In this document: positions 2,461 to 54,466 of the stretch, piece by piece
Layout: the number at the start of each line of letters is the position of its first letter
Position numbering within the stretch: the first letter of the stretch is position 1
Assembly: GCA_900550495.1 (NCBI GenBank)
Contig: URSJ01000004.1
Span: forward strand, 7,908 to 71,907
Direction: 5' to 3'
Source of the DNA: an uncultured Rickettsiales bacterium
Lineage (GTDB): Bacteria; Pseudomonadota; Alphaproteobacteria; Rs-D84
DNA length: 64,000 bases
Translations under genes and position numbers: made by a program
The notes under the pieces: model-generated
Seen by the model: the letters and a program-made list of their open reading frames with translations, nothing else
Databases searched by the model: none
What the model was told of the DNA's origin: nothing

Positions 2461-3583
2461 AGAACCACCCTTTTTTGGCCTGTTTTGTTTCTGCAAATTC
2501 GGCCAAAATTTTCTTTTGTTTTTCGGTCAACTTTGTTGGAATTTGCACCCCAACCAAAATATATAAATCACCAAAACTGTTGCTGCGACCTGTGGGCATA
2601 CCGTGACCACGAACACGCAGTTTTTCACCAACCTGGGTGCCTGACGGAACCTTGACCGACAGTTTCTTGTCATCAATGGTATCAACCTCTATCTCGCCCC
2701 CCAGGGCCAGGGTTGTGAACGGCACGTCAATCCGTGAAACCAAATCTGCCCCGACGCGTTCAAAACGCGCATCAGGTGCAATATGAATATCCAAATAGAA
2801 ATCGCCCGGCGTGCCACCGTTTGATGCGGCCTCGCCCTGGCCGGCCAGGCGCAGACGTGTGCCATCATCAATGCCGGCCGGAATCTTGACGTCCAGGGTT
2901 CTGGATTTATGCACCGTCCCCGTTCCATCACAGGCAGTGCATTTTTTATCAATTTTGCGCCCCAGACCACCACAATCAGGGCACGGGGTTTCCATGGCAA
3001 AAAATCCCTGACGCGTGTGAACATATCCCGAACCGCCACACGTTTTACATACTGGTGCCGGTTTGCCATCGGCGGTGCCATTGCCGCCACATTTTTCACA
3101 CGTCACATTGCTGGAAAACTTTACTGTATGCGTTGTGCCAAAATATGCATCACGCAGTGATATTGTAACATCGTCCAACAAATCACGACCGCGATTTTGT
3201 TGTGCGCCACGCGTGGCACCAAAGTCACCAAATCCGAATCCGCGCATTGCCTCGCGCAATATATCGTCCATGCCGGCGCCACCGCCCATATCAAAATGAA
3301 ATGCGCCATTACCGAACGGATTACCACCAAAACCGGCACCTGCCGACGCGCCATTTCCCCCTGCGAACGCCGCATCACCGAATCGGTCATATGCCGCACG
3401 CTTTTGCGGGTCTTTCAGAATATCAAAGGCGTTGTTTATTTCTTTGAATTTCTCTTCAGCAGATTTATCACCAGGATTTTTATCAGGGTGATATTGCATA
3501 ACCAATTTATGGTATGCCTTTTTAATGTCAGCATCCGACGCATCACGCGCGACGCCCAAAACTTCGTATGGATTTTTATTCAT
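2459..3583 (-). CDS. dnaJ: Molecular chaperone DnaJ
   Basis: J-domain (YEVLGV..HPDKN), G/F-rich linker and four CxxCxGxG repeats (CEKCGGNG, CKTCGGSG, CPDCGGLG, CTACDGTG). Start reassigned to ATG 3583 (MNKNPYEVLGV). No dnaK is adjacent. Confidence 0.95.
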   Translation of the reverse strand: MNKNPYEVLGVARDASDADIKKAYHKLVMQYHPDKNPGDKSAEEKFKEINNAFDILKDPQKRAAYDRFGDAAFAGGNGASAGAGFGGNPFGNGAFHFDMGGGAGMDDILREAMRGFGFGDFGATRGAQQNRGRDLLDDVTISLRDAYFGTTHTVKFSSNVTCEKCGGNGTADGKPAPVCKTCGGSGYVHTRQGFFAMETPCPDCGGLGRKIDKKCTACDGTGTVHKSRTLDVKIPAGIDDGTRLRLAGQGEAASNGGTPGDFYLDIHIAPDARFERVGADLVSRIDVPFTTLALGGEIEVDTIDDKKLSVKVPSGTQVGEKLRVRGHGMPTGRSNSFGDLYILVGVQIPTKLTEKQKKILAEFAETKQAKKGWF

Positions 3584-6350: not shown

Positions 6351-7548
6351 ATTGAATACCGACACTGAAATCATCGCCCCACGTGGCAACAACCTGGCCA
6401 CCGATGGTGCATTGCACATCTTCAAATCCGCCAGATACCTGGTTCTTTTTTACGATATTACTGGTCACCAACGCGCCCGTTGTCCCCAGCACAACCGCTG
6501 CAATGGAATCAGATGCCAAACGTGCCGTGTTAAAGTTCCCCTGCTTATCGCGCCACACAGACACCTTGAAATCATCAGACATCGCGTTCAACCGTGTCCA
6601 GGCGCGTTTAATTTTCAAACGCGACGCATTTTGTTCCGAAATAATAACCTGGGAATTATCGCCCGATATTGTCACAGAATACAGATTCTTTTCCTCTGGC
6701 AATTCCTGGCAATATTCACTGCGCCCCGCATTATAGTAAATTTCAACATTTTTCAATTTACCACTTTCATATTTAGGCACGCTAACCTTTGTATTATTGC
6801 CGACATCAAGACAGACCTTCAATACAGGCAACGCCTTCCATTTATGGCTGGTCTGGGTGTCACCATGATTTTCATTTGTGCATTCAAAAACAAATGCATC
6901 AGCCCCCTGGGTGGCTGAACCCCCAACCGCACCACCAAATGACAACCAAATTTTATCACCAGGATTTTTTACTTCGCACCCCTTAATTTTTGACTTTGTT
7001 CCTGGATTATTACAATCATAACACTTTTTATTTGCTTCACTTGCTGGTCGCAGCCCATCAGTTGCACAGAATTCATATCCTGCACTGTCCACCCACAAAT
7101 ATTCATCCATATATGCATCTCTGGTCGCACTCTTGGCGCATGTTCCAGTGGCGATGCGAACCGACGCAGTTGTTTTCTTGGCCGGTGCCGGCGTAGATGT
7201 AGTGGTTTTCTCGGCTGGCGCGCCGACCAAGTCGGCCGGCACTTCTATTTCTTTTAAGCATACAAGGTATACTGTTCCAATTCCTGCAATTTCTCCTAGA
7301 GGACCTTGCGCTTTATAGCCTTTCTCACAATTAACAACCCCAGACCGGCAGCCAGACTCCGCCGTTAATATTTCAGCGCATGCTGTTGCATGTTTATGCC
7401 CATAGCACGGCACAACCACGTTGCACACATTGTCCCAGCTGCCACCAGCGCCGCCACCGCTGGTGCTGCCACCGCCCCACTCAGCCACAGCATTTAAGTT
7501 AAATAGAAACACTCCACAAAAAGCGGCTAAAACAATGCGTCTTATCAT
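6349..7548 (-). CDS. Secreted cysteine-rich protein, family copy A (399 aa): conserved signal peptide and Gly linker, variable Cys-rich core, conserved C-terminal ~92-aa domain
   Basis: Signal peptide MIRRIVLAAFCGVFLFNLNAVA followed by EWGGGSTSGGGAGGSW. The C-terminus NAMSDDFKVSVW..NFNTARLASDSIAAVVLGTTGALVTSNIVKKNQVSGGFEDVQCTIGGQVVATWGDDFSVGIQ is shared with copies B and C. Confidence 0.8.
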   Translation of the reverse strand: MIRRIVLAAFCGVFLFNLNAVAEWGGGSTSGGGAGGSWDNVCNVVVPCYGHKHATACAEILTAESGCRSGVVNCEKGYKAQGPLGEIAGIGTVYLVCLKEIEVPADLVGAPAEKTTTSTPAPAKKTTASVRIATGTCAKSATRDAYMDEYLWVDSAGYEFCATDGLRPASEANKKCYDCNNPGTKSKIKGCEVKNPGDKIWLSFGGAVGGSATQGADAFVFECTNENHGDTQTSHKWKALPVLKVCLDVGNNTKVSVPKYESGKLKNVEIYYNAGRSEYCQELPEEKNLYSVTISGDNSQVIISEQNASRLKIKRAWTRLNAMSDDFKVSVWRDKQGNFNTARLASDSIAAVVLGTTGALVTSNIVKKNQVSGGFEDVQCTIGGQVVATWGDDFSVGIQ

Positions 7549-7861: not shown

Positions 7862-8963
7862 ATTGAATACCAACACTGAACTGGTCACCCCAGCCGGCAA
7901 CCGTCTGGCCGCCAACCTGGCAATTTATATCTTCAAATCCGCCAGATACCTGGTTCTTTTTTACGATATTACTGGTCACCAACGCGCCCGTTGTCCCCAA
8001 TACCACCGCCGCAATGGAATCAGATGCCAAACGTGCAGTATTAAAATTACCATCCGCGTTTTTCCACACCGACACCTTGAAATCATCAGACATCGCGTTC
8101 AGTTTTTTATACACAGACGTTATTTTCGTCCGGGATTGGTTTTGTTCTGAACTGACCAACGCCGCGCCTTTGACACATTCTTTGCCGTCTTTTATTTCAT
8201 AGCCTGGTTTGATACATTTACATTCGCCATTGGTCCACTGGGCACCAACAACCCGGCCACATTCTGTCACCTTGGGATTAGTAATACAGTTTTTGGTATC
8301 TGACGAATAGATTTTTGTCGTATCCAGACATATACACTGGTTGTTTTCCCATTTGGCAACTGACGCGCCCAAACCCTTACAGTTTGTTTCGTCTGTTGGG
8401 ACACATGTATTTTGAGCATTACGTTCATATCCGGCTGTGCATTCACACTTCTTTTTATCCGCGCTTTGTGTTAAATGCGCATCGCCACTGCACGAACACT
8501 TTTTTTTACTCCACGTTCCACCAGAGTTTTCACAGTCCTTTTGTTTACCACTTGTTGAAGAATTGCTTGACGCAACCGGTTGAACAACTGTTGTAGTTGT
8601 GTGGACTACCGCCAGCTGTGCTGACGCGGTTGTGCCACTGGATTGTTTTACACAATTGCGATACAACGGTTGTCCTTTACTTGTAGTCCAACCAGAAATC
8701 GGGCTAGCCAATTTATAATCGCTGTTACATTCAACAATTGCCTCTGTGCAAGTAGTTTTGTTCGAATCGCTTTTTTTATAACACGTCTTTGCATGTTGTT
8801 TTTTGTCACAGGTCACATACTTGTCACAATCAATGTCATCATCGCCCCAGCTGCCACCACCGCCACCACCGCCGGTGCTGCCACCGCCCCATTCTGCAGC
8901 AACAGCATTTAAGTTAAATAGAAACATTCCACAAAAAGCGGCTAAAACAATGCGTCCTTTCAT
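7860..8963 (-). CDS. Secreted cysteine-rich protein, family copy B (367 aa)
   Basis: Signal peptide MKGRIVLAAFCGMFLFNLNAVA followed by AEWGGGSTGGGGGGGSW. I count 21 Cys after the signal peptide. There are three C..W-x4-CxC..C modules and the conserved C-terminal domain ending FSVGIQ. Confidence 0.8.
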   Translation of the reverse strand: MKGRIVLAAFCGMFLFNLNAVAAEWGGGSTGGGGGGGSWGDDDIDCDKYVTCDKKQHAKTCYKKSDSNKTTCTEAIVECNSDYKLASPISGWTTSKGQPLYRNCVKQSSGTTASAQLAVVHTTTTVVQPVASSNSSTSGKQKDCENSGGTWSKKKCSCSGDAHLTQSADKKKCECTAGYERNAQNTCVPTDETNCKGLGASVAKWENNQCICLDTTKIYSSDTKNCITNPKVTECGRVVGAQWTNGECKCIKPGYEIKDGKECVKGAALVSSEQNQSRTKITSVYKKLNAMSDDFKVSVWKNADGNFNTARLASDSIAAVVLGTTGALVTSNIVKKNQVSGGFEDINCQVGGQTVAGWGDQFSVGIQ

Positions 8964-11885: not shown

Positions 11886-12734
11886 TTACGATTCCCAGAT
11901 TTGCAACAGGCCCTCGTAATCAAATGTTTCACATTCTTCGGGCTTTTCGGTGCCGTTCCAAATATCTTTGTCGCATTCGTTACGCAACTCTTTCAGATAA
12001 CGACCAAATTCATTATATTCAGACGCCTTTTCCTTTTTTAATACCAGCAACTGGCTGCGCAACTGTTCATTTTGACTCAGCGATTTTTGTCCTTCAACAG
12101 AACCACCTATCAACTTGTTTCCGAACAGTTCCATGATACCAACGCCAACGGCCGCACCACCAACAGCACCGCCAACGGTCGCCCATGTCCGTGCAGACTT
12201 TTTCGCATCCAAGATACGTTTTTTTATCTTGCCTTCGTCTGTCCATTCACCACACGTGATTGTGCGTCCCATTTCAAAATATTTTGCCGGAACATCAGAC
12301 ACGCTGATTTTAGGATCGGACGATTTCATTTCAACCCTAACAAAGCACGTATTGTTTTTCGGTTCTTCGACATCTTCGACCATGCTGGCATAGTTGTTCA
12401 GATTACTGTATCGTGACGCCCAAACAAAGGTATTACCCATACCAACATTGTTATTGATGCACGCATTTTTTTCCTTTTCGCGCATATCAACATCTGAATT
12501 TGTGTTTTCTGGCTCAACACGCGTGCTGGATTTACTGGTATCTGGTGTTATTGTTGGATTGCTGGACACAGACATCGTCGCCATAGACGATATTTGCGCC
12601 TTGGACGCGGTCGCACGATTGGCTGCGCCAACCATCTGAGCTTGCACTGAACGACGCGACTGACCCGCCGGCACCAATGCCAGTGCAGGCATTGCCACAA
12701 CACAGCACAAAATCGCAGAAATTATTTTTTTCAT
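11886..12734 (-). CDS. Secreted or membrane protein with a glycine-zipper segment (282 aa), function unknown
   Basis: Signal peptide MKKIISAILCCVVAMPALA. Gly-zipper/TM-like segment WATVGGAVGGAAVGVGIMELF followed by a coiled-coil-like tail with Cys pairs. Confidence 0.7.
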   Translation of the reverse strand: MKKIISAILCCVVAMPALALVPAGQSRRSVQAQMVGAANRATASKAQISSMATMSVSSNPTITPDTSKSSTRVEPENTNSDVDMREKEKNACINNNVGMGNTFVWASRYSNLNNYASMVEDVEEPKNNTCFVRVEMKSSDPKISVSDVPAKYFEMGRTITCGEWTDEGKIKKRILDAKKSARTWATVGGAVGGAAVGVGIMELFGNKLIGGSVEGQKSLSQNEQLRSQLLVLKKEKASEYNEFGRYLKELRNECDKDIWNGTEKPEECETFDYEGLLQIWES

Positions 12735-12848: not shown

Positions 12849-13436
12849 TTACTTTTTCCACTTCCACTCTATCTTAGACTCGGTCCCGCCAACCAAGCGT
12901 CCAATATTTTCGCGATGCCGCCACAAGCAAACCAGTGCTATCGCCAAAAACGCAAGCCCAACATGCACGTTCATAACAAAGCCTAAAATCGGCATTAAAC
13001 AGAACACGACAACCGCCCCCAGTGACGAATACCCCGACGATAGTGCGACAACCAACCACTCGATACCGCATATCACAAACAATAACGGATTTGTCGCCAG
13101 CAACACGCCGAATAACGATGAAATACCCTTGCCACCGTGAAAACGCAACCATATTGGATAGCAATGACCAATAATCGCAACAAATCCACACCATGCGCCA
13201 AATGCCACACCACCAATGGCCTGGCCCAGCAACACAGCCACGATGGCCTTGGCCATGTCCAACAACCACACCGCCCCCGCCATACGCAGGCCACCTACGC
13301 GCATAACGTTTGTAGCACCGATGTTACCACTGCCGACTTTGCGCAAATCACCGCGCCCCATCAATTGTGTAAATACCAATCCCATTGGGACAGAGCCTAA
13401 CAAATAAGAAATAACCAGAACAATTACATACATCAT
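12849..13436 (-). CDS. plsY: Glycerol-3-phosphate acyltransferase PlsY
   Basis: Motifs YLLGSVP, GSGNIGATNV and HGGKG in a multi-TM 195-aa protein. Confidence 0.92.
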   Translation of the reverse strand: MMYVIVLVISYLLGSVPMGLVFTQLMGRGDLRKVGSGNIGATNVMRVGGLRMAGAVWLLDMAKAIVAVLLGQAIGGVAFGAWCGFVAIIGHCYPIWLRFHGGKGISSLFGVLLATNPLLFVICGIEWLVVALSSGYSSLGAVVVFCLMPILGFVMNVHVGLAFLAIALVCLWRHRENIGRLVGGTESKIEWKWKK

Positions 13437-13509
13437 TTTATTTTTCCTTGATTTTGTGTTTGTTTTTTATAGAATAGCAAGAAACTTGAATAAATAAAAG
13501 GAAAATAAA

Positions 13510-13770
13510 GTGGCAAATCATAAGTCATCTGAAAAAAGAATTTCTGTTACGGCCAAGAAGAATGCCGTGAACACTGCCCGTCGCAGTGCTGTTAAAACCG
13601 CTACGAAAAAGGCATTGGTTGCAATTGAATCTGGGGACAAGACTGCGGCAACAACCGCTGTACGTGCCGCAGAAAGCAAGATTATGAAATCTGCTGGCAA
13701 GGTTATGCCGAAGCAGCGTGCTGCACGCAAGATTTCGCGTCTGGCGAAAAAAGTTTCCAAAATGGCATAA
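13510..13770 (+). CDS. rpsT: 30S ribosomal protein S20
   Basis: MANHKSSEKRISVTAKKNAVNTARRSAVKT. GTG start behind a GGAAAATAAA region. Confidence 0.93.
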   Translation: MANHKSSEKRISVTAKKNAVNTARRSAVKTATKKALVAIESGDKTAATTAVRAAESKIMKSAGKVMPKQRAARKISRLAKKVSKMA

Positions 13771-13791
13771 ATGCTATTACTACGGCGACTC

Positions 13792-13814
13792 GGCGCACAT
13801 TTTGTGCGCCTTTT
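13792..13814 (+). terminator. Rho-independent terminator after rpsT
   Basis: Hairpin GGCGCACATTTTGTGCGCC followed by TTTT. Confidence 0.75.
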
Positions 13815-13920
13815 GCTGTATACAACGCCTCTTATCGGGGCGATTTTTTTTTGTTAAAGAACATGCGTTTCACGCGATGGAAGTGATAAAGTAAAATTCC
13901 CCTCTGACCAGATGGGTGAT

Positions 13921-14123
13921 GTGAAGCACCCAGGTGTCGTTTTTTCATGGGTTGCTTCACTACGTTCACAATAACAATGGCGCCAGTCATTGTTAGTTGT
14001 CATTCCTGCGCAGGCGGGAATAAGGGGCTTTAAAATTACTCCTGCCCATTGTTGCACGATATACGTAAAGCGCCCCGCAAAATCGTTGGATTTTTTTTGT
14101 AGGGGGCCAAGAATCCAGGTCAT
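13921..14123. repeat. Composite of palindromic REP/MITE-like repeats in a 360-bp non-coding gap
   Basis: Hairpin GTGAAGCA..TGCTTCAC at 13921-13960, palindrome GTCATTCCTGCGCAGGCGGGAAT at 13999-14021, and GAATCCAGGTCAT at 14111-14123. Confidence 0.6.
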
Positions 14124-14174
14124 CGGACTGTGCGCCAGGGGCGCATTTTATCTGCGCTCTGAAATATGAACTCT

Positions 14175-14201
14175 AAAAAACGCGCCAGCGGCGCGTTTTT
14201 T
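14175..14201. terminator. Bidirectional terminator (A6-CGCGCCAGCGGCGCG-T6) after family copy C
   Basis: GC hairpin flanked by A and T runs. Confidence 0.8.
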
Positions 14202-15709
14202 ATTGCATTCCTACACTAAACTCGTCGCCCCAGCCAGCAACAGTTTGACCACCTATCTGACAATTAATGTCTTCAAATCCGCTGGACACTTGATTCTTTT
14301 TTACCACGTTACTGGTTACCAACGCACCTGTTGTCCCCAATACCACCGCCGCAATCGAATCGGATGTCAGACGCGCAGTATTAAAGTTACCATCTGCATT
14401 CTTCCATACAGATACCTTAAAATCATTTGACATCCCGTCCAGTTTTTTATAAAGGTCACCTATTTTTATCCGAGATTCTGCCTGTTCTTCGGTCTTTATC
14501 AGCTCATCACTCTTGACGCACTGGGTTTTCTCCTCGTTCACAACATACCCTGCGGTTACACATTCGCACGTGCCAATCCATTTTGCACCAGGAATTTTTT
14601 TACATGCAACCATATCCGGATTATCTTCGCATTCGGTGCCGTTAAATTGCCGATATTGTCCACTGCATTTACACTGTTTTTCAACATCATTCCAGAATGC
14701 CCCAGACGACGTAGCAGCTTCGCATTTTTGTTTTAATGCGGCTATATTTGTCAGATTGCAACGACGATTGCTTTCGTCACGCATATAGTCCGTATCGTTT
14801 ATGCAGGTGCATTCACCATTGCTTAATTTTAAGTTCTTGGCCGAATCACACGTGCATTTGCTGCCGTTCCATGTCCCATAAGAGTTTTCACATTTTTCTC
14901 GAACCTGCTAGTTGTGTTCTTGCTGACGCTTTTTAACCACCGCTGGATTTTCTATGCAACTTTTTGCATCCCTGGCAACAATCCATTGATTGGCACAGGC
15001 ACCATCATTAAGTCGAATTTGCCACCCATTAGACATGCAAGTCTGTGTGCACTTGCCTGTCACATGGCTAAGGCTTGTCAGACCGTCAACCACTTTGCCA
15101 CCCGTCATCTGGCACTTTGCCGCATTATTTGAATCACCAGTTGAGTACGCTTTACCTGTCGCATCTTCACAATTGGCATTTTGCCTTGCACAGCCAGTCT
15201 TGTCTGCATTTGGTTTATAGTTTTCTTCGCAAGTATAATACACACAACCTGTGCTGCCCCCTGTGTTTACTATTTGTTCGCCACCAGACTCTTTCTTGGT
15301 CGCAAACCCATCAAGCAAATAGCGTGTTTTGACCTTAGCCTTTTCTCTTGCTGTTACACCCAACGGGCTATTTTTGCATAGCCTCGTAGGATTAGATTTA
15401 TGCCATTCGTCATATGCACTCCAACTTATATCAACACATGTATATATATCGACTATCTCGCCATGTATATCCGTTTGACCAACATTCGCCTGATAGCCGC
15501 ATTCGTTATCACCAAAACTATAATCATCAGAATCACAAGAATAACATTGACCACCACCAATCGTAGCCTGTATGTATTCCTTGTTTTCGCCAATCTTGCT
15601 GGTATCTTTGGGGCACGCAAAAGCCTTGCAGTTCTTTGCCCCATATGAATCAGAAATCCCGACAAATATACAAACACAACATATTGATAGTAACCAGATT
15701 TTTTTTCAT
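14200..15709 (-). pseudogene. Cysteine-rich family copy C, disrupted by an A8 tract frameshift at codons 2-4 and one in-frame TAG
   Basis: ATG at 15709 is followed by A8 (15699-15706), which runs out of frame into a TGA. With A7 the frame reads MKKIWLLSICCVCIFVGISDSYG and stays open to TAG at 14908-14910. Family sequence continues in the same frame to the conserved C-terminus (..FSVGMQ). Confidence 0.65.
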
Positions 15710-15781
15710 AATATGCCCTTTTTCCATGTCGAAAATAAACCACCGTTTAAAATCAACATCGCCATCGTGTTCAATGCGTTC

Positions 15782-15810
15782 ATTTTAGCACATTTTTGAA
15801 CTGCCACCAA
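15782..15810 (-). promoter_or_regulatory. Promoter of family copy C: TTGGTG, 17-nt spacer, TAAAAT
   Basis: Gene-orientation sequence TTGGTGGCAGTTCAAAAATGTGCTAAAAT. It is homologous to the copy A and B promoters, and the leader core TTTAAACGGTGGTTTATTTTCGACAT is also conserved. Confidence 0.45.
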
Positions 15811-15904
15811 GGATAAATTTTGCCACAAAAGCAACCATAGAGCATATGCACCCATGTGGCTTGTGACAAATAATACATTGCGCATGAACTCTGAAATTCG
15901 AACT

Positions 15905-15937
15905 AAAAAACACCGGCAGTCGCCGGTGTTTTTTTTT
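15905..15937. terminator. Bidirectional terminator (A6-CACCGGCAGTCGCCGGTG-T9) after the secretin gene
   Basis: GC hairpin flanked by A and T runs. Confidence 0.8.
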
Positions 15938-17564
15938 AGTTCAGTGGTGCACCCCAATGCTGTTGTATACTGCGTTCAGCGTCCATCGGACTGACTAATA
16001 CCTGGGGTGTCAAGATAACAACCAGAGTATCGCGCGTCGCCGATGCTTCTCGCGACCCCGACAGTGCCATAAAGTCTGGATCACCCAAACCATAACGCGT
16101 ATCATTATTGGTCTGCTTTTCAAAGCCTGATACAACCAACATCTGACCAGATTCCATAATAACTTCTTGCATGAAACTACGTTCTTCAACCTCTGGCAAT
16201 TGTAATGTAACTTCGCCGATGGTCTGAGTGGACATTTTCAGCAATTCACGCACCGACATACGGAACAGCAACAGAATCTTGCCGTTTTCCAAAACATTTG
16301 GCAACAGTTGCATTGAAAATCCAGTTTCCAGATCGTCCTGGTCAACAGTGCTGGATTCAACCGTTGTAAAATTACGTGATTCAAAACGTTTGATATATCC
16401 CGTGGTCTTGGTGTTGTTCACAGGCGCCACACGGTTGCTGCGCGTAGTGACACCGACGTTCGTAACCAATGATACCTTGCCCTGCTTTGCCAATGCTTCT
16501 ATCAACGCGTTACTGCCTGCGCCACGTGCCAAAGAACCATTTTTAATCTGGTCTTGGGTATACGCCCCTGCAACAGTAGACGAACCCTCGACATGGGTGG
16601 CACCCGTCAAAGCCGACACAGTATTAGACAAAACCGCGATGTTCATTGAACTGGCTTCGGTCGTGGCCAAATTGTTCTTTGGGTTGGCAACAATGTTCAA
16701 GCCCGACGCACTATTGATTGCCGCCGCCAAATTCAAACCAAATGCCGAATCGTTTGAAATCGAAACCTGCAACACCTTGACATCAATGGTCACCAACTGG
16801 GACAAACGTTTGTTTTGTCTGTTGATATATTCACCAACGCGTGTCAATACCGATGGTGGTGCAGTAACCGTGATTGTCCCCAAACTGCGCGATACAGTAA
16901 AGTCTGCATTGTCGGTCTTGCCAACGATACCGGAAATCGCCTTTTCAATTTCATCCCACTCTTTTAATGTAGATTCCAATGCCACCTGGTTACCGTCATC
17001 AGTTTGAACAGCAGTCTGGTATGACACATCAGTCCCCAAAGCATACAATGTAAATGTCTTGGTTTCTGTTTCATAGAAAACAATTGATGTTTTGTCGTAA
17101 TACCACAACAGGTCTAAATCCGTCGCAACTTGGGACAACAGACCGGACAATTTGCCAGTATATGCAACATTAATCGTCTTTTTTAATTTTTCAGAATTTA
17201 CCTGGTTATCAATTTTAACGGGGATTCCAGTCATAGAATTGATGTTATTTGCCAACACCTGTAACGTGACCGGCTCGTTCAACAAGATTGTAACCCCAGT
17301 ATCGGTTTCAAATTGCGATGGCAAATTGTTACGATGTTCCAAGACCGTCGATTTGTTACCCAACCATACACCTTCGGACATGGACACTGTATCACCACTG
17401 GCAACCTTGGCTCGTGGATTTTTGGCCATTTCAAATGCATCATATGCATTAACAAAATCCTGGTCAACCGTTGACGCCACTTTGGCGGATTCCTTGACTG
17501 CACACCCAGCCAGCGCAAATGTCAATATGCCGCACATAAATATTATCTTTGCTGATTTTATCAT
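15936..17564 (-). CDS. Lipoprotein secretin of the type IVb pilus PilN/BfpB/TcpC type
   Basis: Lipobox LAGC at the N-terminus. C-terminal secretin domain (VKVLQVSISNDSAFGLNL, LVTNVGVTTRSNRVAPV, GFSMQLLPNVLENGKILL, MLVVSGF, TLVVILTPQVL). Confidence 0.8.
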   Translation of the reverse strand: MIKSAKIIFMCGILTFALAGCAVKESAKVASTVDQDFVNAYDAFEMAKNPRAKVASGDTVSMSEGVWLGNKSTVLEHRNNLPSQFETDTGVTILLNEPVTLQVLANNINSMTGIPVKIDNQVNSEKLKKTINVAYTGKLSGLLSQVATDLDLLWYYDKTSIVFYETETKTFTLYALGTDVSYQTAVQTDDGNQVALESTLKEWDEIEKAISGIVGKTDNADFTVSRSLGTITVTAPPSVLTRVGEYINRQNKRLSQLVTIDVKVLQVSISNDSAFGLNLAAAINSASGLNIVANPKNNLATTEASSMNIAVLSNTVSALTGATHVEGSSTVAGAYTQDQIKNGSLARGAGSNALIEALAKQGKVSLVTNVGVTTRSNRVAPVNNTKTTGYIKRFESRNFTTVESSTVDQDDLETGFSMQLLPNVLENGKILLLFRMSVRELLKMSTQTIGEVTLQLPEVEERSFMQEVIMESGQMLVVSGFEKQTNNDTRYGLGDPDFMALSGSREASATRDTLVVILTPQVLVSPMDAERSIQQHWGAPLN

Positions 17565-17608: not shown

Positions 17609-18517
17609 TTATTCCTCGTTCGTAGAAACCACCAAGACGCGATTTCCCTTGTAGAATTTTGCATATGGAATCGGTGTTGCGCGCCCAAAGTTACGAACCA
17701 AAGCAGACGCCACGTCAACAAAGCGTCCTTTGAATACGGCGCTGGCCTCTATTGGATATTCGCGCGATGTCGCCCAAACCAAATCCCAACCTTCTTTGTC
17801 ACACCAGTTTTGTAAAACCTCACGCAGGGTCTGGCCATTTGCAACAACCCAAGAACGCACCTGGTCTGCGACCTTTTGTGCTGGCTCTGCATCAGCTGAT
17901 ACGTTTACAGAAATCTCTGTTTCTTCGTTAACAATTTCGCCGTTTTCATCGGTTGTTGTTTTTGTCATACCCGTCTTGGCAGCGAAAGCATCGTAACTAT
18001 CGGCGTATTTTGCACAGTTCTTGCGTCCACTGCGTGCAACAGACAAAATTGCACCACCATCATCTTCCAACATTTCTCGATGCAATAACGGCATTTCTGA
18101 GCCAGAATTGCACTCGTCATCAAACCCGACCGGAATCTGGGTTCCATGCAGCATATTTGCACCACCAGACCAGTCACCAAAACCATCACCCGTTCCCAGA
18201 TTAAAATTATTTTCAACAACCAGGTCTGCGCCAATCTTGGACACAATGCGAATATTATCAGATTGCGAACTCTGGGCACACGCACCATCTTCGCATGCGA
18301 TTTCAACATCGGCATCCGTTCCCGCCATCGGCCATACCGGTACCGCTGCCTGAACCGTTTCAGTTGTTTCAACCGTCTGTACCTGCTGATTAGCATCCGA
18401 TGATTTATCCTGGGTATAAAAAACCTCACTCGTGACAATCTGGGGCAATGATTCTGCGGCAAAGCAATAACCAGCAGCCGTCGCAAACATTGCAAAAACT
18501 AAAATCTTACGGAACAT
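17609..18517 (-). CDS. TcpQ/PilL-like protein (C-terminal toxin-coregulated-pilus protein Q-type domain)
   Basis: Signal peptide MFRKILVFAMFATAAGYCFA. The C-terminus WVVANGQTLREVLQNWCDKEGWDLVWATSREYPIEASAVFKGRFVDVASALV..FYKGNRVLVV matches the TcpQ/PilL pattern. Start set to ATG 18517 behind AGGAAAGGAAG. Confidence 0.65.
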   Translation of the reverse strand: MFRKILVFAMFATAAGYCFAAESLPQIVTSEVFYTQDKSSDANQQVQTVETTETVQAAVPVWPMAGTDADVEIACEDGACAQSSQSDNIRIVSKIGADLVVENNFNLGTGDGFGDWSGGANMLHGTQIPVGFDDECNSGSEMPLLHREMLEDDGGAILSVARSGRKNCAKYADSYDAFAAKTGMTKTTTDENGEIVNEETEISVNVSADAEPAQKVADQVRSWVVANGQTLREVLQNWCDKEGWDLVWATSREYPIEASAVFKGRFVDVASALVRNFGRATPIPYAKFYKGNRVLVVSTNEE

Positions 18518-18694
18518 AAAAACTTCCTTTCCTGAACAAGTTATCATATTTTTTTACTTATTATAACAATTTGACCGAATCTGTGCAAGACCAAATCGCA
18601 CCCCACAAAATTTATCGTTTGCAAGATAAAATCGCACGAATCGGTAAAAGATGTTATACTTAGAACCATCAGACATGCTATCAAGGGTAAAATT

Positions 18695-54268: not shown

Positions 54269-54466
54269 ATGAAAAAAATATCTGTTTCTTTGTCAGGCCA
54301 CCACACCAGCATATCGCTGGAATCAGAATTTATCGACGCATTACACGAAATCGCCACACGCCAATCCAAAACGGTCAGCACAATAATAAATGAAATTGAT
54401 AAATCCCGCACAACCAATAATCTATCGTCTGCGATACGCGTGTGGGTTCTGAAAAACTATAAATAA
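54269..54466 (+). CDS. Ribbon-helix-helix protein (RHH_4-type, 65 aa)
   Basis: VSLSGHHTSISLESEFIDALHEIATRQSKTVSTIINEID..NLSSAIRVWVL matches the alphaproteobacterial RHH_4 pattern. Confidence 0.65.
   Translation: MKKISVSLSGHHTSISLESEFIDALHEIATRQSKTVSTIINEIDKSRTTNNLSSAIRVWVLKNYK

Follow-up and report, generated by a model that had tools for sequence, protein, structure and literature searches.

Two lesions and recurrent loss in a gene for a predicted exported cysteine-rich protein of uncultured gut Alphaproteobacteria

We analysed a 64,000-nucleotide stretch of DNA (the window; contig URSJ01000004.1 of assembly GCA_900550495.1, positions 7,908 to 71,907) from an uncultured Rickettsiales bacterium, in which the minus-strand locus 14200–15709 holds a gene with two lesions that is predicted to encode an exported protein with cysteine-rich repeat modules. 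The gene lies between a secretin gene and rpsT, and two intact paralogues are present in the same window (Table 1). An earlier reading made from the letters of the window only (the sequence-only reading) had taken the locus for the third member of this family, in agreement with the tblastn matches to both paralogues. A direct check confirmed that the ATG at 15709–15707 is followed by eight A and opens a frame, MKKNLVTINMLCLYICRDF, that meets a TGA at 15652–15650 after 19 codons. With one A removed the frame reads (M)KKIWLLSICCVCIFVGISDSYGAKNC... and begins with the signal peptide MKKIWLLSICCVCIFVGISDSYG/AKNC..., identical to the N terminus of the intact orthologue P0032. From 15705 this A7-type frame runs without a stop for 266 codons until it meets a single TAG at 14910–14908 (codon 267), and past the TAG it continues through EKCENSYGTWNGSKCTC... 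to ...GWGDEFSVGMQ and a TAA at 14202–14200. Upstream it is closed by a TGA that overlaps the ATG (15708–15706). Its first ATG, GTG or TTG is a TTG at 15363, so that rescue by an alternative start is impossible. The sequence-only reading had described the early TGA, the signal peptide behind the surplus A and the TAG within a linker followed by family sequence, all of which stand; its further statement that some 265 codons are both open and free of starts until 15363 is right about the openness, whereas only the first 114 codons are start-free.

All hallmarks of the family are found at the locus, namely W-x-G-x-C-x-C modules, a signal peptide and a domain of about 95 amino acids (DFKVSVW...FSVG.Q). 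In the predicted protein a signal peptide would be followed by a β-rich N-terminal domain; a helical linker would connect this to CxC repeat modules, and the conserved domain of about 95 amino acids would form the C terminus. This last domain is near-invariant over alignment columns 426–505 and contains a hydrophobic stretch, SIAAVVLGTTGALVTSN, that is probably a membrane anchor. The family has at least 535 relatives in uncultured Alphaproteobacteria, on contigs of 0.85–0.93 Mb that are probably near-complete genomes. Searches of Pfam and NCBIfam with the orthologue returned no family match, some distant homologues match DUF5874, and a sequence search of the PDB with the family profile found no match. 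An AlphaFold2 model of P0032, built from a 26-sequence alignment (mean predicted local distance difference test score (pLDDT) 70.5), has a β-rich N-terminal part, a helix at residues 255–275 where the TAG falls, and then small β-hairpin cysteine modules; its last 60 residues are of low confidence. Foldseek comparison of this model with the PDB gave no significant match (best E = 0.085), and the weak matches, with E above 0.08, were all to eukaryotic cysteine-rich extracellular modules of the EGF, VWF and mucin types. Judged by these searches, the family appears to be previously undescribed.

Table 1. Features of the broken gene and its surroundings (window coordinates)
Feature	Positions	Strand	Remarks
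Start codon ATG	15707..15709	-	Same ATG opens the intact orthologues P0032, L010, L013 and L018
A8 tract, lesion 1	15699..15706	-	+1 insertion relative to the A7 of intact alleles; frame shift after codon 3
TGA closing the 19-codon out-of-frame A8 product (MKKNLVTINMLCLYICRDF*)	15650..15652	-	
Signal-peptide coding sequence (KKIWLLSICCVCIFVGISDSYG)	15640..15705	-	Readable only in the A7 frame; identical to the P0032 N terminus
(AT)4 repeat, codons 87-90, second slippage hot spot	15442..15449	-	In-frame length in the window; (AT)5 in L011, L014 and L016
N-terminal β-rich cysteine-containing domain (predicted), mature residues 24-266	14911..15639	-	pLDDT about 75-90; first ~500 nucleotides nearly identical among strains
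TAG, lesion 2, GAG (Glu267) to TAG	14908..14910	-	G-to-T nonsense substitution; predicted helical linker
Cysteine-rich repeat region, W-x-G-x-C-x-C modules	14488..14907	-	Mosaic among alleles; at about 14560-14850 some 70% identical to L001, nearly identical to L003
Conserved C-terminal family domain (DFKVSVWKNADGNFNTARL.SDSIAAVVLGTTGALVTSN.VKKNQVS.GFED..C..GGQ.VA.WGD.FSVG.Q), hydrophobic stretch, then TAA	14200..14487	-	Near-invariant columns 426-505; low-confidence model
Intrinsic-terminator-like hairpin (AAAAACGCGCCGCTGGCGCGTTTTTT) directly after the stop	14174..14199	-	Seen in the sequence, kept in orthologues; unlisted by terminator scan
Purine-rich putative ribosome-binding stretch GGAAAAAGGG, 6 nucleotides before the ATG	15716..15725	-	Kept in orthologues
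Promoter-like site TTGTCA-17-TATGCT (putative)	15841..15869	-	Consensus scan gives 9/12 matches, no more than chance expectation
Bidirectional terminator hairpin between secretin gene and broken gene	15905..15937	.	Carries an A9 tract (A8 in all other strains)
Secretin gene	15936-17564		Directly upstream of the broken gene
TcpQ-like gene	17609-18547		Directly upstream of the secretin gene
rpsT (ribosomal protein S20, 86 amino acids), downstream	13510-13770	+	Identical in contigs from >200 blocks of the collection
Intact paralogue, 367 amino acids	7860..8963	-	tblastn E 3e-62
Intact paralogue, 399 amino acids	6349..7548	-	tblastn E 2e-39

Comparison with related strains, one of the checks proposed in the sequence-only reading, establishes which state of each lesion is derived. 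A protein search with a paralogue as query led to P0032 (the product of loci L001 and L002), a protein of 505 amino acids whose first 266 residues agree almost completely with the read-through translation and which has Glu (...HNEQVREKC...) where the window has TAG. In L001 and L002 the gene order is that of the window (TcpQ-like gene, secretin gene, the gene itself, the 86-amino-acid gene rpsT, plsY, a 282-amino-acid gene, dprA), and DNA alignment places ATG-A7-TCTGG and GAG at the two lesion sites there. A pattern scan of Joint Genome Institute (JGI) metagenomes added L010, an intact allele of 502 amino acids on a 696-kb contig that differs from the window at 22 codons, 9 by synonymous and 13 by nonsynonymous changes including the stop. 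Intact syntenic orthologues encode 502–509 amino acids, and the order TcpQ, secretin, gene, rpsT, plsY is kept in L001, L010, L013, L017, L018 and L022. In intact alleles the A7 run forms codons 2–4 (AAA AAA ATC) directly after the same ATG, and all other alleles compared carry GAG or another sense codon at the TAG site. As these orthologues show A7 and GAG, both the A8 (a +1 insertion) and the TAG (a G-to-T substitution) are derived, and the proposal that the true start is the shifted ATG with a +1 slip behind it is borne out. The read-through sequence is about 98% identical in nucleotides to the intact 502-amino-acid orthologues, so that the reading frame past the lesions is not due to chance. 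The inactivation is recent, since the gene is no more diverged than its flanks (98.3–98.9% identity; 98.3% over 8.1 kb) and the promoter and ribosome-binding region is conserved; in the 420 nucleotides upstream of the gene most alleles differ by only 1–7 substitutions.

Other searches were less productive. A protein search with the N-terminal 266 amino acids returned only cluster P0121 and missed even P0032, which indicates that the word index is insensitive here, and a scan of species-representative genomes gave only distant relatives ('uncultured Rickettsiales UMGS1303' and 'Alphaproteobacteria bacterium'). Versions of the locus were found far more readily through the neighbouring rpsT than by protein search, and the identity of rpsT across strains makes it a useful handle for collecting strains of the species.

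A homopolymer error, the third option of the sequence-only reading next to a pseudogene and a phase-OFF locus, would mean that the tract is in truth A7 and the gene undamaged as far as the TAG, or over its whole length should the TAG be an error too. Within a 7.5-kb stretch the window has one base more than L001 in each of three poly-A tracts (at 15937, 15706 and 13852), a pattern that might pass for systematic bias. However, across 4808 bp the independent Logan assembly of SRR1761667 (L006) matches the window with 100% identity and reproduces the A8, the TAG and both A9 tracts; a 96-amino-acid out-of-frame open reading frame (ORF) that depends on the A8 matches only the SRR1761667 contig in an exact look-up; and A8 recurs at the same site in L020, a separately assembled sample. 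Six other A8/T8 tracts inside ORFs of the window (8500, 10438, 10857, 10949, 45426 and 53699) are all in frame, and no other split gene is visible among the roughly 57 long ORFs of the 64 kb. Moreover, the TAG is a substitution and poses no homopolymer problem, and two lesions in one gene suit decay better than two errors. Sequencing error is unlikely because the Logan assembly is identical, the other A8/T8 tracts are in frame and no other gene is split; that the gene is really intact, in whole or up to the TAG, we regard as very improbable. The two longer intergenic tracts (A9/T9 at 15929–15937 and 13844–13852) are A8 in L001, L003, L010 and L011, and A9 also in the Logan contig; the first makes up the A arm of the bidirectional terminator that follows the secretin gene, and the second lies upstream of rpsT.

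The look-up through rpsT recovered ten distinct locus versions among the 24 longest contigs carrying rpsT, out of roughly 207 contig blocks; the sampled contigs come from human gut samples, Hadza included, and measure up to 930 kb. Together with the loci found before, seven alleles are intact (L001, L010, L012, L013, L017, L018 and L022), and the rest are disabled or altered in several ways. A8 is the sole lesion in L020, and expansion of (AT)4 to (AT)5 at nucleotide 260 is the sole lesion in L011, L014 and L016. A CAG-to-TAG change at codon 352 is found in L003–5 and L019, on 17 contigs, and P0137 represents the intact version of this allele type. In L015, TGG has become TGA at codon 435, inside the conserved C-terminal domain. 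L021 (ERZ15609706, a 766-kb contig) has lost the A of the ATG (CATATTTGAAAAAAATC), leaving a TTG start; this TTG sits one base nearer the ribosome-binding site, and L021 is possibly a low-expression allele. The window has A8 together with TAG at codon 267. Across the 24 contigs, with 'similar places' counted, the gene is intact on about 13 and broken on about 10, and one contig has the TTG start. In all these loci the neighbouring plsY and 282-amino-acid genes are full length; the secretin gene is present too, although most loci end within it, and the identity of rpsT follows from the way the look-up works.

The tract behind the start codon varies in the same set. A7 is in frame in 13 of 17 loci (16 plus L006, which is identical to the window), with ATG or, in L021, TTG, and an out-of-frame A8 occurs only in the window, L006 and L020. 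In L012 (ERZ15610123, positions 3001–3015) the T of A7-T is replaced by A (Ile4 to Asn), which gives an in-frame A8, and the allele is ON; the ON allele here has a longer, more slippery tract, and the intergenic region upstream of L012 bears an insertion of about 57 nucleotides. P0137, which begins MKKN..., was considered as a compensated frameshift and rejected, as its T-to-A substitution makes A8 in frame.

Alleles with the same lesion do not share one background. (AT)5 occurs on two very dissimilar ones: L014 is 2 substitutions from the intact L018 and 22 from L016. Likewise the 5′ haplotype of L020 has 2 differences in 430 nucleotides from the intact L010 and 5 from the window, and the downstream flank does not group L020 with the window either. 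Genes that differ in repeat length are otherwise 98–99.9% identical. Either slippage recurred at both repeats, or OFF alleles crossed backgrounds by recombination. In its N-terminal third and at its C-terminal end the window allele is close to L001 (98–99% identity), whereas its middle (about 14560–14890, the cysteine repeats) is about 70% identical to L001 and nearly identical to L003. Mosaicism extends to the flanks, where strains differ by 13 to >200 substitutions per 1.5 kb. No recent conversion between paralogues was seen within the window, where amino-acid identity in the repeat region is 51%.

These observations probably describe a recently inactivated gene for an exported cysteine-rich modular protein, locked OFF in the window and lost recurrently across the species. 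Replication slippage would have lengthened the A7 of codons 2–4 to A8, so that translation from the only available start would end after 19 codons; a G-to-T substitution would then have turned Glu267 (GAG) into TAG, the order A8 first and TAG second being our inference. A return to A7 would yield at most a secreted fragment of 266 amino acids that lacks the conserved C-terminal domain. The gene is locked OFF, a pseudogene, because the second hit is not reversible by slippage, and for the window strain the two independent lesions favour the pseudogene option of the sequence-only reading. Single-lesion alleles such as L020 could in principle revert, and the window allele could not. Across the species, losses would arise mainly by slippage at two short 5′ repeats, the A7 tract and (AT)4, and strains would come to differ in their ON/OFF state, in the manner of a slow contingency locus. 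On the best reading of the alleles the gene appears dispensable and lost again and again, mostly by slippage at these repeats; its loss would be tolerated or favoured, and the short repeats would be the most mutable sites of a dispensable gene. Immune, phage or partner-cell selection may stand behind the recurrent loss, and the protein may be located at the cell surface. The mechanism would thus be of a known kind and act on an apparently undescribed protein family, with recurrent, mostly repeat-driven inactivation as the added finding.

Several points weigh against this account. The 24-contig count is biased to long contigs, and the states of the 'similar places' in it were assumed, not read. 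Selection is inferred solely from recurrence, and relaxed constraint combined with mutational hot spots would look similar to selection for loss. The sharing of A8 or of (AT)5 could reflect spread by recombination and not two origins, given flanks that are strongly mosaic. The Logan contig and the window may derive from the same data. A consensus error common to two assemblers using the same reads, or a minority A7 population within the sample, leaves a small residual doubt; assemblies report the majority state only. A possible but rather doubtful extension gives the repeats a role: slippage at A7 and (AT)4 would switch expression of the family at the population level, and OFF alleles would recur or spread by recombination under selection against the protein, exerted by host immunity, phages or partner cells; OFF alleles of long standing, that of the window among them, would then decay into pseudogenes. 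The scheme would amount to a slow contingency system, its repeats far below the lengths known from classical phase variation.

Translational phase variation through repeats in the signal-peptide region of outer-membrane protein genes is known from Neisseria opa (CTCTT) and from Helicobacter pylori hopZ and oipA (CT), and Campylobacter has comparable poly-G genes. The locus resembles all of these: a simple repeat follows the start or lies in the 5′ part of a gene for an exported protein of a variable family, gain or loss of repeat units leads the frame into an early stop, and ON and OFF alleles occur among close strains. In its classical form a phase-variable contingency locus would toggle between A7 and A8 at high frequency in a clonal population, and the window would hold the OFF phase, as the sequence-only reading had suggested. 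The position of the tract, in the signal-peptide coding region of a variable multigene family of exported proteins, is typical for translational phase variation; repeat length does vary between in-frame and out-of-frame alleles, with A7 and A8 found among near-identical strains; the second repeat, (AT)4/(AT)5, behaves likewise; and single-lesion, potentially revertible OFF alleles exist (L020, L011, L014 and L016), in which the ON repeat length restores the full product. Against this, the tracts are short, and switching would therefore probably be orders of magnitude slower than in the known systems. Accepted cut-offs for phase-variable tracts are at least 10 for poly-A/T and at least 6 repeats for dinucleotides (PMC6321876), and A7/A8 (15699–15706) and (AT)4/5 (15442–15449) fall well under them, neither being of a length shown to switch. 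Three of the six lesion kinds are nonsense substitutions beyond the reach of slippage, so half of the ways to OFF differ from those of opa, hopZ, oipA and the Campylobacter genes. In addition, the window allele has a second, irreversible hit: its A7 frame ends at the TAG of codon 267, which makes a return to A7 insufficient.

Nor is the context of the tract special. The sequence-only reading had listed ATG-A7-T starts (MKKI) at 12734, 33926, 37468 and 46130 on the minus strand and took the A8 for a +1 slip in this common context; these starts are confirmed, and a fifth lies at 54269 on the plus strand. ATG-A7 proves to be the ordinary MKKI start of exported proteins, including LolA (the 37468 gene) and a β-barrel outer-membrane protein (33926). 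AAA is the preferred lysine codon (420 AAA compared with 192 AAG). The L001 orthologue of the 12734 gene starts ATGAACAAAA instead of MKKI. Thus the tract is polymorphic between strains, as a phase-OFF locus would have it, whereas its length is below the usual cut-offs and, with the TAG in place, a slip alone would not bring the gene back ON. Classical phase variation is unproven and the term probably too strong; we consider such rapid toggling at this locus unlikely. Compared with ordinary pseudogenes that combine a frameshift with a nonsense codon, the broken gene is similar in its intact syntenic orthologue, its two lesions, its retained regulatory signals and a divergence not above that of the flanks. 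It differs in the breadth of its loss: one species-level population holds at least five independent ways of disabling it, on about 40% of the sampled contigs, more than one-off decay would account for.

A gene with these lesions could conceivably still be expressed by recoding, if transcriptional slippage, or a +1 slip of tRNA-Lys in the ribosome, restored the frame at the A run and the TAG were read through or suppressed. Runs of A are slippage sites for RNA polymerase, at rates that climb steeply with length, and are numerous in reduced genomes (PMC5574713); frameshifts in poly(A) tracts of Buchnera and Blochmannia may be partly rescued by transcriptional slippage (PMC5574713, PMC3017870). 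The present case shares with them a reduced genome (about 0.9 Mb), a frameshift in a coding poly-A run and AAA as the preferred lysine codon. However, slippage on A runs mostly adds bases (PMC5574713), and rescue here needs the loss of one, which makes rescue by transcriptional slippage unlikely; unlike in Buchnera and Blochmannia, the tract is only A8, its rescue calls for a deletion in transcription, and the downstream TAG would still remove the conserved C-terminal domain. Re-pairing of tRNA-Lys by +1 on AAA-A may be sterically possible, but A7 is in frame in most alleles and the shift site is not conserved as a programmed signal; programmed frameshifting was rejected, as the out-of-frame arrangement is confined to the window, L006 and L020 among the 17 loci. 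That two independent in-frame stops are both TAG (window codon 267 and L003 codon 352) could hint at suppression. Yet five other long ORFs of the window terminate in TAG, the tRNAs found in it comprise only tRNA-Phe and tRNA-Lys and no suppressor, a third nonsense allele uses TGA, and orthologues have Glu (GAG) and Gln at the two TAG positions, so there is no common recoded residue. Reassignment or suppression of TAG was rejected on these grounds, and expression by recoding in general is extremely unlikely.

In the Anaplasmataceae, surface-protein families such as msp2/p44 diversify by segmental recombination with pseudogene cassettes. The gene studied here likewise belongs to an alphaproteobacterial exported family with conserved ends and a variable, mosaic middle, and its alleles are patchworks of blocks. 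Unlike a truncated cassette, the locus is equipped with a promoter region, start, signal peptide and terminator of its own, and many strains carry it intact. We considered a silent msp2-like donor cassette and rejected it, as the last three of these elements together with the many intact alleles mark an expression locus.

The terminator hairpin at 15905–15937 separates the gene from the secretin gene upstream, and the gene is therefore a transcription unit of its own. The TcpQ-like and secretin genes resemble the outer-membrane part of a type IVb pilus or type II secretion system, and unlike the broken gene the two paralogues have no neighbours of TcpQ or secretin type. An exact look-up of the window secretin in the sequence collection gave no record, and an Rfam scan of 13400–16100 gave only terminator-like sub-threshold matches. 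Just after the signal peptide the paralogues carry the glycine runs GGGSTGGGGGGGSW and GGGSTSGGGAGGSW (8826–8900 and 7414–7488), which are built of GGC/GGT repeats and vary in length among strains (P0001–P0006).

The source is probably one of the gut lineages with reduced genomes, such as Rs-D84/Enterousia (PMC12306168). At the surface of these reduced-genome bacteria, only 'hypothetical membrane-bound proteins' are mentioned in a published account (PMC12306168). The public assembly (L006/L023, Logan SRR1761667_0) calls the broken gene as three small ORFs of 96, 151 and 194 amino acids; the locus should be annotated instead as a pseudogene of a 502-amino-acid exported protein, and the three-ORF call illustrates how pseudogenes inflate counts of hypothetical proteins. 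The alleles further illustrate that, among loss-of-function mutations, those at very short repeats can predominate. The gene is under unusual turnover in an uncultured, host-dependent gut bacterium. Turnover of this kind usually marks an exposed target, for example an antigen, a phage receptor or an adhesin, and for this reason the family is a good candidate for the cell-surface interface of reduced-genome gut bacteria.

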